This document shows, in pieces, positions 10,837 through 18,777 of a stretch of 19,552 nt of DNA. The first letter of the stretch is position 1. Each line of letters begins with the position of its first letter. Source of the DNA: an uncultured archaeon (GTDB lineage Archaea > Asgardarchaeota > Lokiarchaeia > Sigyniarchaeales > SOKP01); contig CAZGJX010000086.1 of the NCBI GenBank assembly GCA_964525635.1, forward strand, positions 1-19,552, read 5' to 3'. The position numbers and the translations under genes were made by a program. The notes beneath the pieces are model-generated. The model was not told the DNA's origin and made no database searches. It was given only the letters and a program-made list of their open reading frames with translations.

Positions 10837-12039
10837 TTAATCAAATAAGTCATCATCTATATCTTCTAATGCTTCTAATCGCTTTTGATAAAGATACTGA
10901 TTTTTATGTTTATTAATATCTTTTATAAAAATGTATTTTTTTTTATCAAATAAATGTGTTTTTCCTATATTATCAACTCTTTTTGAAAAAGTTCTTATGA
11001 CGTTCGGAGGAAAATATTTCTTATAGATCTTTGTTTCTTCCAATAATTTTAATAAACATAATGAATCGTAGTCTGGATTCTTATTAATATATATTAGCTT
11101 TTCCAATTTCCTAATTATCTCATTTTGCATTTCAGGAATTAAAAAATAATATCTTATAAATATTAATTTATGAATTTTTCTTTTTTTTATTCTAAGAATA
11201 CCCTCTTTATCCAAAATATCATAAAATTCAGATGAAAGTTCCTTATATCTTCTTTTGATTTTATCAATTAAATTGACAACGGATATTTCCCATTCTTCTT
11301 TTTTGTTATTGTTTAAATTGACGATTGTTTTAAGAATCTTATTTAAAATAATATTCTCAGTTTGAGCATAATCTTCTATTTTTATAAGACCGTCCTTGAT
11401 TGTAATTTTTTTTTTAGCATATAAATCATAAAGTAATGCTATAGCGAATCCTACATCTCCATCGACATCTCCCCAACAAAAATATATTTTATTTTTTTTT
11501 TGATTTATAAGCAAAATAAGGTACTTTTCATGAATAAGCCATTTTTGTTCTTCTATTGATAATGATTCTGGGAAATCATGAATAGTTTTTATATGATTTT
11601 TGGATGTTTTGATATTATATTTATTAAGAAAAGCACTAATAAAACCTAAGAAAATTGAAAAAGAGCTAAATATTATAATAATGCTGTAATAATATAATGG
11701 TTCAATATAATATGGATAATAATCTATTATAAGCTGATCTGAACTCAATATGAAGATAATTATTGTTATAACTATTACAATATTATTAATTGAGCAAATT
11801 AAACATTTATTAAATCCATTTTTCATCCAATATCCAATCCAAAAGAAAAGTATGATTGAAATACACATTATTATTGAACTTATAATAGATAAAAAAAAAA
11901 TAAATGAATTAAAAAAATATCCAAATTCTAAGATAGTTCCTATTATATATTCCCAAATATTTAAAAATCCTATTATACTACCAAAAAATAATAAAATTCC
12001 GCCAATATATTCAAGAACCCATTCTTTATCCTTTATCAA
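10837..12039 (-). CDS. N-terminal ~4-TM domain fused to a GPP34/GOLPH3/Vps74-family domain
   Basis: Residues ~8-138 form four hydrophobic helices. From ~170, IHEKYLILLINQKKNKI..DVGFAIALLYDLYAKKKITIKDGLIKIEDYAQTENIILNKILKTI and later LDKEGIL match the GPP34 pattern (LxEELLLL..GLAGAxLxEL..grI....v.v.d..pTgd.lLd..L). Recognised by eye, not by HMM. Confidence 0.7.
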   Translation of the reverse strand: MIKDKEWVLEYIGGILLFFGSIIGFLNIWEYIIGTILEFGYFFNSFIFFLSIISSIIMCISIILFFWIGYWMKNGFNKCLICSINNIVIVITIIIFILSSDQLIIDYYPYYIEPLYYYSIIIIFSSFSIFLGFISAFLNKYNIKTSKNHIKTIHDFPESLSIEEQKWLIHEKYLILLINQKKNKIYFCWGDVDGDVGFAIALLYDLYAKKKITIKDGLIKIEDYAQTENIILNKILKTIVNLNNNKKEEWEISVVNLIDKIKRRYKELSSEFYDILDKEGILRIKKRKIHKLIFIRYYFLIPEMQNEIIRKLEKLIYINKNPDYDSLCLLKLLEETKIYKKYFPPNVIRTFSKRVDNIGKTHLFDKKKYIFIKDINKHKNQYLYQKRLEALEDIDDDLFD

Positions 12040-14433: not shown

Positions 14434-15303
14434 TTATCCTAATTTTTCAAGGACGGAATTAAGGCGTACTCTATGAAATCTTAAACCAATATCGTCTGCA
14501 CTAATTCCCATAGCTAAAGCTAGTAATTCAGTGATATATAATACAGGTATATTATATTCCGTTTCAAACTTCTTTGAAATATTTCTCTGTAATGTATCAA
14601 ATTGTTGAAAGCATGCAGGACAATTAACACAAATAACATCCGCATCAACTTTTTTCATAGCATCCAATTTTTTCTTTAGAATTTGGGAACCATGTTCTTC
14701 ATAAACATTATTTACAGCAGATCCACAGCATAATATTTCTAATCCATAATCTACTACTGTAGCTCCTGTAGTCAATACAATTTCCCTTAATGTAGTTGGA
14801 TTCATTGGATCATCCGATTCCATCCATTCTGCTGGTCGCATATAATGACATCCCGGATGACATGCAACTTTTAATCCATTTAATTGTTTACTAATAGCAC
14901 CTTTAATATCATGAATCTTATCTTTTAGAACATCTACAAAGTGCTTAACATCAATCGAACCTTTAAATTTCTTACCTATTTTTGCTAATTCTAAATTTAT
15001 CTTTTCTTTTTTTAAAGAATCATGATTTAACTGATGTTGTACTCCTCTTAAAGTATTAGTACATCCGTTACATAATGAAATAATATCTTTTCCTTCAGCC
15101 TCAGCTAGACATAAATTTCTAGCTCCAATTGTTAACCACGCATTGTTATCGAAATTTTTCATACCTGTAGGGTCAGGACAACATGAAAAAGGAGCTTGGG
15201 ACGTTTGTATGTTCATTTTCTCAAATACTTTTCTAGATGCAGCTTCTATAAATGGAATCCTATTCCCAATCGTACAACCCTCAAACATTTTATATTCTGT
15301 CAT
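14434..15303 (-). CDS. hdrB: Heterodisulfide reductase subunit B
   Basis: Two CCG domains: GC..FSCCP..LCNGC and HPGCHY..LCCG..NCPACFQQFD, plus IPVLYITELLALAMG. Confidence 0.95.
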   Translation of the reverse strand: MTEYKMFEGCTIGNRIPFIEAASRKVFEKMNIQTSQAPFSCCPDPTGMKNFDNNAWLTIGARNLCLAEAEGKDIISLCNGCTNTLRGVQHQLNHDSLKKEKINLELAKIGKKFKGSIDVKHFVDVLKDKIHDIKGAISKQLNGLKVACHPGCHYMRPAEWMESDDPMNPTTLREIVLTTGATVVDYGLEILCCGSAVNNVYEEHGSQILKKKLDAMKKVDADVICVNCPACFQQFDTLQRNISKKFETEYNIPVLYITELLALAMGISADDIGLRFHRVRLNSVLEKLG

Positions 15304-15309
15304 TTTCTT

Positions 15310-15825
15310 TTATCCTTCATTCTGTTTTATTTTTGAATCTGCCCCAATATTCTTTAATAATGTTTGTATTTCATTAACATCAGGTTTTATAACTGAAGGC
15401 AATCCTAATTGTTCTCTTCTTCTCTCAATTGCTGATTGTGAAGGAATAGCTTTTGCATTGTCAAAAATTGTTTTTGCTTGTCTATAAATAAAATTAGGAG
15501 CCTCACCCTTCTTTACACTTTCATTTTTTAAGAATGTAAAAATTTCTGTTAATTCGATATTTTGAGGACAAAGCTCATTACAAGTATCGCAGACAGTACA
15601 ACCCCAAATTGTAAGTGGATCAGCTGAAAAAATAGCATCCTTATTTCCTAATAAAGCATTTAAGATATTAAGCCTAGGGTCATATCCGGTTGTACCATAA
15701 AAATCTTTTGAAACATTAGATACGGGACAATTATCTGTACATCGACTGCACTGATAACAATATTTAATAATATCAGAACCCATATGGTAATCCATAACTT
15801 GTTTTCTAAATTCAAAATCGATCAT
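15310..15825 (-). CDS. hdrC: Heterodisulfide reductase subunit C (2x[4Fe-4S])
   Basis: CYQCSRCTDNCP and IWGCTVCDTCNELCPQNI, plus C-terminal RREQLGLP. Directly upstream of hdrB. Confidence 0.93.
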   Translation of the reverse strand: MIDFEFRKQVMDYHMGSDIIKYCYQCSRCTDNCPVSNVSKDFYGTTGYDPRLNILNALLGNKDAIFSADPLTIWGCTVCDTCNELCPQNIELTEIFTFLKNESVKKGEAPNFIYRQAKTIFDNAKAIPSQSAIERRREQLGLPSVIKPDVNEIQTLLKNIGADSKIKQNEG

Positions 15826-15883
15826 TATTTATTCTCACTTTTTAGATCTTTTTTTCTATTTTCTAAATTTCTTTTTATATATT

Positions 15884-15957
15884 TGTTAGCTATAACCTAA
15901 GCAAGGTAAGTTATGTCCAATCTATTATTTTTATTGGACAATCATCCTAAGCCAACA
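15884..15957 (-). promoter_or_regulatory. Candidate SECIS element (eukaryote/Loki-like) for vhuU
   Basis: The mRNA reads UAGG-AUGAU-UGUCCAAU-AAAAAUAAUAG-AUUGGACA-UAA-CUUA: an AUGA core, a perfect 8-bp stem and an A-rich apical loop, enclosed by UGUUGGCU/AGCUAACA. The 3' core has AA instead of the canonical GA. Confidence 0.5.
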
Positions 15958-16091
15958 TTTAAATTCCGAGAAAAAATCTCTTTACCTTCCTCATTAACAA
16001 CAGTAATGTGGGCGGCACAAGATAGTCAACAATCAAAACATCGTACTATCATTTCTAAGAAATTTATAACTCCTTCCGGTACATCACTCAT
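15942..16091 (-). CDS. vhuU: Selenocysteine-containing [NiFeSe]-hydrogenase peptide subunit VhuU (not in ORF track)
   Basis: ATG at 16091, translating to MSDVPEGVINFLEMIVRCFDC-U-LSCAAHITVVNEEGKEIFSRNLNVGLG*. The in-frame TGA at 16026-16028 (codon 22) sits at the first Cys of the L2 motif DPCxSCxxH that the upstream large subunit lacks. AAGTGA lies 8 nt upstream of the ATG. Confidence 0.92.
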
Positions 16092-16144
16092 TTGATAATT
16101 CACTTTTCTATTTTATTTTGATTTTTATATAAATTTCATTTAAG

Positions 16145-17449
16145 TTATTTAATCCATGGGGTTGGTAATTTTAATCCATCTAAAGCTTTGTCCTCAAATA
16201 TTTGCTTTGCTACATGCATCAATGTTTTCTCTATACCTGCTATATTATGATTTGTTGCAACAAGAAGATTCATTTTTTTACAAATTCCTTCAGCATCAGA
16301 CCAAATATGATAAAGAAGAAGACCACGAGGAGCTTCTGTTACCCCTATTCCTTCTGCTTCTCTTGGTTCGATATCTAAAGTTTTACAATCTGGATTACAT
16401 ATGTCTGGATCTTCTAAATATGTTTTTATTAGTTCAATAGCTTCTACAGTTTCAATCAAACGTGCCCAATGATATGCAAACGTATGATGTGAAATTTTCC
16501 CTACCTTATCTCTAAATGCCTTTAACGCCTCATCTGCCAAGGGTGTAGCCATTTTATCAGCTGCATTAATCATTGCTAAACAATTAGCTCTATATATACC
16601 TTCAGGGTATCCTGCTGGTTTATAATATATATGAGTAGCATAAGAATGTTTAGGAATATGCTCACCTAAAACATCTAGATATTTATGAACATCATAATCG
16701 ATTTTTTTTCCTTCAGGAGTGACAATACGTATATCTCCTTCATAAATATCATGTACCCCATTTTTTGCTAATCCAACATAATAAGTTGGAACTATTCCTA
16801 CATTAGCTACAACATCCCAATAATCTTCTATAATTTTTAATCCAATATCTACAGTTTTTTTAGTGAATTCAATTTGTTCATCTATTTCTTTTAAGAATTT
16901 ATCTCGAATATCTTCATCTAAAGGTTTTTTCATACCTCCTACAATTGCTGAGATTGGATGAACAGATTTACCACCGATAGCAGCACATAGTTTCTGTCCA
17001 AAATCCATCATTTTTAATGCCATGGCTCCTACTTCAGGCATTTTATTTATAACATGAACAACATTCCTCAATGCTGGATCAGCCATAGGCCCTAATAAGA
17101 AATCTGGCGCAGCTAATGCATAAAAGTGCAAAAGATGAGAACTATATTGTTTTGCATTTATCAATAATTTTCTCAATTTTAATGCTGGTGTTGGAATTTC
17201 AACCCCCCAAGCATTTTCAACTGCTTTTGTTGGAGTTAGATGATGTGGAATTGGACAAATACCACATATTCTTGGTGTTATCCTAGGTATATGTTCACAA
17301 TAACGACCTTCACAAAATTTTTCAAAAAACCTTGTTGATGTTATATTAAATTGAACATCTTGTACTTTTCCATCATCTCCTAATACTAACCTTAATCCAC
17401 CATGACCTTCTAATCTTGTTATAGGTTCTACTTCTATTTCTTTTACCAT
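16145..17449 (-). CDS. vhuA: Group 3c (Mvh/Vhu-type) hydrogenase large subunit, split form lacking the C-terminal L2 motif
   Basis: EPITRLEGHG, RFFEKF, L1 motif RICGICPIPH, GGKSVHP, HWARLIE, EAPRGLLLYH, LVATNHN. It ends at LPTPWIK with no DPCxxC. Confidence 0.92.
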   Translation of the reverse strand: MVKEIEVEPITRLEGHGGLRLVLGDDGKVQDVQFNITSTRFFEKFCEGRYCEHIPRITPRICGICPIPHHLTPTKAVENAWGVEIPTPALKLRKLLINAKQYSSHLLHFYALAAPDFLLGPMADPALRNVVHVINKMPEVGAMALKMMDFGQKLCAAIGGKSVHPISAIVGGMKKPLDEDIRDKFLKEIDEQIEFTKKTVDIGLKIIEDYWDVVANVGIVPTYYVGLAKNGVHDIYEGDIRIVTPEGKKIDYDVHKYLDVLGEHIPKHSYATHIYYKPAGYPEGIYRANCLAMINAADKMATPLADEALKAFRDKVGKISHHTFAYHWARLIETVEAIELIKTYLEDPDICNPDCKTLDIEPREAEGIGVTEAPRGLLLYHIWSDAEGICKKMNLLVATNHNIAGIEKTLMHVAKQIFEDKALDGLKLPTPWIK

Positions 17450-17451
17450 TT

Positions 17452-18777
17452 TTATTTGCCTCCTTTAAATTCTCTATTTGATGCTAATGTAAATTTTTCA
17501 AAGGTTCCAATATGATCTTTCACTTGTGATAATAAATCCTCTTTTGAAATAGTTACATTAAAGTTTTTTAGAATGGTATCTGTAAATCTTTCAGCTTGAT
17601 TAACGCCCCATTTAGTTTGTCCATAACATCCAGTACATGGAGCATTAACATTGATACATAATGCACCACAGCCTGCCTTTGTGACAGGCCCCATACAAAT
17701 ATATCCTTGTTCAATTAGACAATCTTCCATATTAGGAAGCCCTTCATAATCTCTCTTAACTCTTATCATTGATGATTTACTACCTATTATTCTAGAACAT
17801 GTATCACAGACATTAGAAATTTCATGGAAGTTTCTATTATCTCTTAAATAATTCAACAACTTAGTCACAATTTCCTCAATTGATGGTGGAAGATTTGCTA
17901 AAGGGGTTTCGATATTTCCCTTATTATTTATTTGTTTTAAAATATCACCTTTTAGATCAAATCCTGACATTAATGGGACATTTAAGAATAAAGTTAAGAA
18001 TTCAAAGAGATTTTTTTTATCACCAGAACTAATTGAACTTAGATCTCTTGCAATGTTATTTAATTTATCGATTTTAGAGGAAACAGTCTTCGAAGGACCC
18101 ATACAACCGACACATACTCCTCCATTGTTAGTACATTTAAGTGTACATCCTATGCTAGTGATTGGCCCGAAACATATTTTCCCTGCATCTAATATACATC
18201 CTTCTTGATTTAGCGAACATTCATTACAAAATGCTAATTCATTCATAGGAAAAGGTTTTTGTCCCAATAAGAATAGTATAGAACCAACAATTTGTTCAGG
18301 TTTAGGTGGACATCCTGATAAATATGCATCAACTTTAACAATATCATCAATAGGAACAATTTTCTCGATAAAACCTGGAACATGTTCAAAAGGTTCTCCT
18401 TGACTATCATCTGCTATACTTTCAACTTCTGTAAATTTCCTTTTTACGAGGTTATCTTTATTCCATTGATTAGCTAATCCATGTACATTACCATAACATG
18501 AACAACTACCAAAAGAAATGATAATTTGGCATTTTTGTCTCATTAATTTTGTAGCTTCTATATCTTCATTGGTTCTTAGACTTCCTTCTATAAAACCTAC
18601 AAGTATTTCTCCGTCTTCCCGGTTTTTTAAAGAATCATACTTGAAATCAACAACAGCTGGCCAATAGACAATTTCTAATGCTGGGAGAACATCCAGCAAA
18701 CCTAAATGTACATTTAAAAGGCTCTGATGACACCCCCAACAATCAGAGTTTTGCCAAAACGCAACTTTCACTGCCAT
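17452..18777 (-). CDS. vhuG: Group 3c hydrogenase small subunit (MvhG/VhuG) with a duplicated C-terminal Fe-S domain
   Basis: Proximal-cluster motifs DCWGC, FIEGS, FGSCSCYG and SGCPP, followed by two 8-Cys modules (C184-C225 and C324-C384). Confidence 0.9.
   Translation of the reverse strand: MAVKVAFWQNSDCWGCHQSLLNVHLGLLDVLPALEIVYWPAVVDFKYDSLKNREDGEILVGFIEGSLRTNEDIEATKLMRQKCQIIISFGSCSCYGNVHGLANQWNKDNLVKRKFTEVESIADDSQGEPFEHVPGFIEKIVPIDDIVKVDAYLSGCPPKPEQIVGSILFLLGQKPFPMNELAFCNECSLNQEGCILDAGKICFGPITSIGCTLKCTNNGGVCVGCMGPSKTVSSKIDKLNNIARDLSSISSGDKKNLFEFLTLFLNVPLMSGFDLKGDILKQINNKGNIETPLANLPPSIEEIVTKLLNYLRDNRNFHEISNVCDTCSRIIGSKSSMIRVKRDYEGLPNMEDCLIEQGYICMGPVTKAGCGALCINVNAPCTGCYGQTKWGVNQAERFTDTILKNFNVTISKEDLLSQVKDHIGTFEKFTLASNREFKGGK

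Follow-up and report, generated by a model that had tools for sequence, protein, structure and literature searches.

The closest described counterparts of the locus presented here come from its own lineage. VhuU is among the five Lokiarchaeota selenoprotein families reported by Mariotti et al. (2016; PMC4989117), a protein of ~50 residues with one selenocysteine (Sec), and a selenoprotein of the FrhA/MvhA/VhuU type is present in 68.3% of Sec-using Asgard genomes (Huang et al., 2024; PMC11227280). The published Lokiarchaeota VhuU.1 gene lies beside vhuA and vhuG, and the SECIS of Lokiarchaeota VhuU overlaps the UGA stop codon, in that the UGA of its AUGA core is the stop; it continues into a 9-bp stem, an 11-nt loop that starts with five A and ends in AG, and a closing AA in place of GA (PMC4989117). 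For stop UGAs that lie near a SECIS and are not recoded, the same authors proposed a minimal-distance rule, and Huang et al. (2024; PMC11227280) described lower stems of the form [U/C]GG_C[C/U][A/G] in frhA/vhuU SECIS elements as well as AUGA_AA cores in Lokiarchaeial frhA genes. The locus described here is like the published Lokiarchaeota VhuU in the length of its product, its single Sec codon, its two neighbors and the build of its hairpin, and we see no difference in kind, as it represents another genome of the lineage, in this case a salt-marsh metagenome-assembled genome (MAG). Both the gene and its recoding signal had thus already been described for the lineage in 2016 and 2024, and no new principle is involved.

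A more distant comparator is the VhuU of the Methanococcales (Methanococcus voltae and relatives; 9sfi_M and 9sfi_g), in which VhuU and VhuD are known selenoproteins (PMC2933860). As in our locus, the large subunit is split, with a VhuA of 418 residues compared with 434 here, and Sec occupies the first L2 ligand position of a small peptide that has the same U-x-x-C-x-x-H spacing and aligns with ours from end to end; VhuD, too, is a selenoprotein and has two Sec residues. The motif differs, reading RAYDP-U-YSCAAH in Methanococcales VhuU and RCFDC-U-LSCAAH here, and so does the recoding element, which in the methanococcal case is a SECIS of the GAA_A archaeal type and in the present case is of the AUGA/kink-turn-like type (PMC4989117, PMC11227280). 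In addition, and unlike in the Methanococcales, vhuU is followed here by hdrC and hdrB, and the host is no methanogen. The MvhA of Methanothermobacter (5odc_F) and the other group 3c [NiFe] hydrogenases belong to the same enzyme family and have Hdr subunits as partners, but MvhA is a single large-subunit chain of 473 residues that has Cys in place of Sec and needs no recoding. Finally, the periplasmic [NiFeSe] hydrogenases of Desulfovibrio and Desulfomicrobium (e.g. 2wpn, 1cc1) contain Sec at the same terminal Ni ligand position, within a C-terminal motif; these are group 1 enzymes with an unsplit large subunit, and they depend on a SelA/SelB system and a SECIS within the coding sequence. Sequence matches of vhuU and vhuA to these bacterial enzymes are weak.

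Taking the comparisons together with the evidence set out below, we read the locus as encoding the VhuU of a split cytoplasmic Vhu/Mvh-type [NiFeSe] hydrogenase, with a UGA recoded to selenocysteine, in a Lokiarchaeial host, and we put the probability of this reading at roughly 0.93.

The vhuU gene within its hydrogenase cluster

The window, by which we mean the whole 19,552-nt stretch of DNA that was analyzed, belongs, as contig C86, to a Promethearchaeota (Lokiarchaeia) MAG that was assembled into 245 contigs with a total of 4.45 Mb. The hydrogenase genes form a co-oriented cluster on the minus strand, and its features are as follows.

17452..18777, minus strand: vhuG-type hydrogenase small subunit, 441 aa, first gene of the co-oriented cluster (Pfam PF01058 Oxidored_q6, E 2e-23)
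16145..17449, minus strand: vhuA, [NiFe(Se)]-hydrogenase large subunit, 434 aa, without a C-terminal L2 ligand motif (Pfam PF00374)
16100..16103, minus strand: Shine-Dalgarno-like GTGA, 9-12 nt ahead of the vhuU start codon (read from the sequence)
15942..16091, minus strand: vhuU, predicted 49-codon selenoprotein gene, coordinates including the TGA stop (translation; match to the MvhA C-terminus and to a solved VhuU chain; conservation)
16026..16028, minus strand: in-frame TGA, read as putative selenocysteine codon 22, first L2 ligand position (opposite the X of 9sfi_M and, in MvhA, the first Cys of DPCLSCATH)
16008..16034, minus strand: L2 metal-ligand motif D-C-U-L-S-C-A-A-H (translation)
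15945..16007, minus strand: 21-codon C-terminal extension past the His, presumed substrate of a maturation endopeptidase (tail conserved, changes mostly synonymous)
15310..15825, minus strand: hdrC-like 4Fe-4S dicluster protein, next gene downstream of vhuU (Pfam Fer4_8 and related families)
14434..15303, minus strand: hdrB-like protein with CCG domains, last gene of the cluster (Pfam PF02754 CCG, E 1.7e-25, two stretches)
15913..16095, plus strand: antisense 60-aa ORF, not a gene, which a caller may report instead of vhuU (ORF list; frame not conserved)

The product of vhuA, which starts 2 nt past the end of vhuG, contains the N-terminal RICGIC ligand motif, and its alignment with full-length MvhA (5odc_F, 473 aa) ends at residue 416, ahead of the DPCLSCATH that provides the second pair of ligands; the first-pass annotation, which had the large subunit stopping before this pair, was therefore correct on this point. 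The best solved match of vhuA is 9sfi_g, itself a split large subunit of 418 aa (E 1.1e-123). The vhuU frame begins 53 nt past the vhuA stop codon (16147-16145) and runs on the minus strand from an ATG at 16091-16089 to a TGA stop at 15944-15942, with 49 sense codons when the first TGA is counted as one. Its translated product is MSDVPEGVINFLEMIVRCFDC-U-LSCAAH followed by 21 residues, with the ligands spaced U-x-x-C-x-x-H, and translation thereby bears out the 49-codon frame, the in-frame UGA and the 21-residue tail that had been proposed. The purine-rich element ahead of the start codon, in the form of (A)GTGA, GGTG or GGAG, recurs at a like distance in most of the orthologous vhuU loci.

When the vhuU peptide was compared with 177,635 PDB sequences, with Sec entered as Cys, it matched residues 424-454 of MvhA (E 1.2e-5), the C-terminus of which, EMLIRAYDPCLSCATHI, aligns with it, and it thus covers the L2 ligand motif that is missing from the VhuA-type large subunit, which is the role that had been suggested for it. 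Chance does not come near to explaining a match of this order. The mature peptide aligns to residues 2-27 of the 27-residue chain 9sfi_M (E 1.6e-3), entitled 'F420 non-reducing hydrogenase subunit', with the TGA opposite an X in that chain. As 9sfi_g is the large-subunit chain of the same entry, the peptide and the large subunit each match partner chains of 9sfi, and we identify the peptide as VhuU for this reason, in agreement with the homology originally claimed. A Pfam scan gave no family for the 50-residue peptide, which is too short a piece of PF00374 to be matched.

From these sequence relationships, vhuU is a real gene, the UGA of which is very probably read as selenocysteine, and its product provides the nickel-binding end that the split hydrogenase would otherwise lack. 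It is missed by gene finders. The ORF on the plus strand that overlaps it exists, but the antisense frame is open in just 4 of 94 distinct vhuU orthologues, so that it is not a conserved gene, and its early dismissal as spurious is upheld.

The remainder of the cluster and its surroundings fit a hydrogenase of this kind in several details. HypD, HypE and HypF are encoded in the window, as judged by Pfam, and the genome has one gene for a maturation protease of the HycI family (G000:C105) and two VhuD-type genes, on contigs C87 and C109, each with two in-frame TGA codons. In the vhuG product the Oxidored_q6 domain spans only residues 13-168 of 441, and the long C-terminal part is without a Pfam match. 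The gene order is not the same throughout the phylum: about ten other Promethearchaeota loci (L067:2501-5500, L069, L077, L080, L107, L109, L111, L118, L120 and others) have the order vhuG-vhuA-hdrC-hdrB-vhuU, which places vhuU ~1.5 kb from vhuA, past both hdr genes. Elsewhere in the window, a 400-aa protein at 10837-12039 (minus strand) contains a GPP34 (Golgi phosphoprotein 3) domain (E 2.6e-10), a eukaryote-like family that fits an Asgard host. The sole metatranscriptome run with sequence words in common with the window (X17) yielded short contigs over parts of the stretch, vhuU included, and since these are mostly under 90% identical they probably derive from relatives, and they are not counted as vhuU expression.

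Conservation across the TGA and accuracy of the codon

The vhuU peptide was searched in six frames, with stops read through, in 41 genomes of the same order, and it was found in 37 of them (E down to 5e-25), nearly always with exactly one internal TGA. Among 30 loci that were fetched, 29 have the TGA at the identical codon, and the consensus EM(I/V)(V/I)RC(F/Y)DC-U-LSCAAH is nearly invariant. A second sample consisted of 80 Promethearchaeota loci from public genomes that were found via VhuA; the peptide is present in 73 of these, all with TGA, and 72 of the 73 have an identical DCULSCAAH. The other seven are not evidence of absence, since six had a match ahead of the position filter and the seventh, L089, has only ~1.2 kb of sequence behind vhuA. 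Variants of the motif are few. In L040 (G034:C76) it reads D-P-U, and in L139, a locus cut by a contig end, D-F-U. One relative (L044, on G027:C117) has a Cys form, with TGT at the codon, DCCLSCAAH, a TAA stop and no SECIS hairpin downstream, and the alternation of UGA and Cys among orthologues that the first-pass annotation had suggested looking for is therefore real. An exhaustive protein search with the vhuU peptide gave only 10 matches at E up to 0.001, which comprised Sec forms with a miscalled W, one fused fragment of a large subunit and several split Cys forms.

Behind the TGA it is the third codon positions that vary most, and the single-nucleotide codon differences between distinct orthologues come to ~40,000 synonymous and ~8,700 non-synonymous pairwise counts, figures that show the pattern only, as the pairs are not independent. 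On this comparative evidence, protein-coding constraint acts on the ligand motif as well as on the tail, and a stop at codon 22 is thereby excluded. We accordingly regard as highly improbable the alternative that the UGA is a true stop and vhuU a decayed remnant with a 21-residue product, the hydrogenase then being either inactive or completed by another protein. Standard decoding does stop at codon 22, and the genome has other large-subunit-like matches that are weakly similar to the peptide (G000:C149, E 1e-3), but over 100 loci conserve the frame, the LSCAAH motif and the tail, with changes that are mainly synonymous, and a decayed gene would not retain the same DCULSCAAH in 72 loci out of 73. 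The existence of a Cys form at the same codon also speaks against a true stop, as does the maintenance by this genome of Sec machinery and of a covarying SECIS, which are described below. In two loci, L030 (G013:C49) and L072, a TAA occurs six residues past the His, with the remaining tail frame and the SECIS still downstream; unless a sequencing error is responsible, these loci tolerate a shorter tail and have their SECIS in a true 3' UTR.

The TGA might in principle be an assembly or sequencing error of a TGT or TGC codon, as the window is taken from a MAG of modest coverage, and the first-pass annotation had named TGT or TGC at 16026-16028 as an observation that would overturn the recoding. 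However, contigs from three other runs, X2 (covering 15892-16600), X3 (15600-16124) and X4 (15740-16417), read TGA without a differing letter at these positions, and TGA is found in ~100 independent assemblies, so that the likelihood of an error is close to negligible. The X2-X4 sequences are contigs and not raw reads, and all three are from 2019 salt-marsh metagenomes that may belong to one sampling campaign; the DNA runs that contain the stretch are salt-marsh metagenomes.

The lokiSECIS element and the selenocysteine machinery

The recoding signal overlaps the stop codon of vhuU and has the following parts, the last of which is tentative.

15911..15945, minus strand: lokiSECIS (stem-loop in the minimum-energy fold; covariation)
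15942-15945, minus strand: AUGA core of the lokiSECIS, its UGA being the vhuU stop (sequence)
15941-15933 with 15921-15913, minus strand: 9-position stem, with eight pairs above a U.U foot (fold)
15932-15922, minus strand: 11-nt A-rich loop AAAAAUAAUAG (fold)
15912-15911, minus strand: AA closing the lokiSECIS (sequence)
15904..15948, minus strand: possible lower SECIS stem, AGG (15948-15946) with CCU (15906-15904) (minimum-energy fold)

Judged by its sequence, the hairpin is a lokiSECIS as described by Mariotti et al. (2016), including the U.U foot and the AA in place of GA. The AUGA lies 80 nt past the Sec codon, a spacing that 89 of 106 loci share and that the 21-codon tail also fixes. When 22 orthologous regions are aligned, 92% of the stem cells pair, compared with 18-53% after the partners are slid, and six of the nine pairs have changed on both sides; the covariation score was not attained in any of 500 shuffles. 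The region folds with an energy just modestly lower than that of shuffled sequence (z -1.69). When 15750-16200 was scanned with Rfam at E values up to 10, there was no SECIS family among the matches, which were chance snoRNA-like ones far under the cut-offs; this result is not counted against the lokiSECIS because Rfam has no model of the element.

A simple pattern consisting of [A/T]TGA, a 9-bp stem, an A-rich loop with a final G, and then GA or AA was also scanned across the genome, and it matched only nine times in 4.45 Mb. Four of the matches sit 0-24 nt behind genes that contain in-frame TGA, namely vhuU, both VhuD genes (each having two TGA) and one further gene with a C-U-U motif, the latter three at 15-24 nt. 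This further gene is an unannotated 138-aa ORF at G000:C37:13763-14176 (plus strand; identical to L141:764-1177), ending LQLDPGC-U-U-DKIKKK with two adjacent in-frame TGA codons and with its lokiSECIS 24 nt behind. It adjoins a gene for an ACR3/SBF-type transporter and has no Pfam family, and the ORF is found with 2-3 TGA codons in 35 of 41 genomes of the order.

The pairing of AGG with CCU below the core may constitute a lower stem, as in the modeled fold it fits the description of Huang et al. (2024; PMC11227280). The columns involved are nearly invariant, which puts the pairing beyond a covariation test, and the lower stem faces competition from a local hairpin 3' of the SECIS. A second short hairpin of this sort is found right behind all four of the lokiSECIS elements in the genome (window 15891-15910, minus strand; G000:C87, C109 and C37), with a UUG-containing loop in three of the four.

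The first-pass annotation had predicted that the genome would encode tRNA-Sec, SelD, PSTK, SepSecS and SelB, and matches were found for all of these, with the limitation that PSTK is represented only by a gene of the KTI12/PSTK family. The tRNA-Sec, at 59.9 bits (cut-off 47), is also called as SeC, with anticodon tca, by ARAGORN. SepSecS (379 bits, E 1.8e-113) is encoded ~330 nt downstream of it, and the SelB/EFSec match on the same contig scores 255.9 bits against a curated cut-off of 242; these three lie within ~8 kb (G000:C50:9907-18017) and represent a partial Sec gene cluster. The SelD match reaches 182 bits (cut-off 125), and this gene likewise contains an in-frame TGA, a single one. In the case of PSTK, the gene on C96 matches PF08433 (KTI12/PSTK, 138 bits), a family that also holds Kti12, and because the control genome of Methanosarcina acetivorans is above the cut-off as well, a match to PF08433 alone is not proof of PSTK.

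These components bear on another alternative, which is that the UGA is read as Trp or Cys, through near-cognate decoding or a genome-wide change of the code, and not as selenocysteine. Four proteins in a public collection (P0002, P0003, P0005 and P0010) do have Trp at the Sec position, but they also read on through the UGA stop into the SECIS, and the W forms are evidently an artifact of gene calling with a table in which TGA is Trp, so that they show the use of that table and nothing more. The vhuU gene itself ends on TGA, which implies that TGA is not a general sense codon here, and the other genes of the window match their families over the full length under table 11. Moreover, the position is that of a Ni ligand, is Cys in homologues and alternates with no residue but Cys, a function in which Trp cannot serve, and a Sec-specific tRNA, SepSecS, EFSec and a SECIS are all present. 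We consider a reading as Trp or Cys very unlikely.

With the UGA read as selenocysteine, the locus suggests the following mechanism. VhuA carries the first pair of ligands of the Ni-Fe site, and VhuU contributes the second pair (Sec22 and Cys25) together with His28. The peptide is translated separately from its own start codon, with the short Shine-Dalgarno-like element ahead of it, and we infer that UGA22 is decoded, under the direction of the hairpin, by EFSec with Sec-tRNA-Sec. The parts of the system would be a tRNA-Sec, PSTK, SepSecS, SelD and EFSec of archaeal/eukaryal type, acting with a eukaryote-like lokiSECIS. Two UGAs must be told apart by such a system, and the rule that separates them may be one of distance: the second UGA, within the SECIS core, would be too close to be recoded and would terminate translation, and the first, 80 nt upstream, would be recoded. 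The Hyp proteins, as their families indicate, would load the Ni-Fe(CN)2CO center, and the HycI-type endopeptidase would presumably remove the 21-residue tail past His28 to leave a peptide of ~28 residues. In M. voltae, VhuU is cleaved after the His, and in the present case the tail is conserved and a gene of the HycI family is present. The mature VhuU peptide would then stay on VhuA and VhuG, as it does in the Methanococcales, and electrons would pass toward the HdrC- and HdrB-like proteins, with VhuD, and presumably HdrA, supplied from other loci.

The D-C-U motif and the significance of the locus

The one respect in which the locus may be called mildly unusual is its D-C-U in place of D-P-U. 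The peptide has R-C-(F/Y)-D-C-U compared with the R-A-Y-D-P-(C/U) of other group 3 enzymes and of methanococcal VhuU, and the Cys before Sec is conserved across the order and is also found in the Cys form and in some of the split Cys-type peptides. These split Cys-type relatives have C, P, N or L ahead of the first ligand, and it can be argued from this variation that the site is simply tolerant, which weakens the case for D-C-U as something special. The motif may have passed without remark in the portion of PMC4989117 that was available.

One possibility is that the Cys before Sec, together with the second extra Cys (that of R-C), could form a reversible selenenylsulfide with Sec22 and so protect or gate the Ni site under oxidizing conditions. 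Thioredoxin reductase, with its Cys-Sec pair, offers the comparison. We think this idea unlikely to be right, though if it were true, the enzyme would represent a lineage-specific variant of [NiFeSe] chemistry.

For annotation, the consequence is that the hydrogenase looks defective unless the uncalled 49-codon vhuU is added, and there is a risk that the antisense ORF is reported in place of vhuU or that public pipelines place Trp at the Sec position. The results that are useful for comparison are the Cys form without the hairpin, the fixed 80-nt spacing from the UGA to the core, and the retention of D-C-U across the order. Finally, Sec-containing VhuU and the eukaryote-like SECIS elements of the Lokiarchaeia underpin the current view of the origin of the eukaryotic SECIS, and the locus provides one more clean example of the two together.
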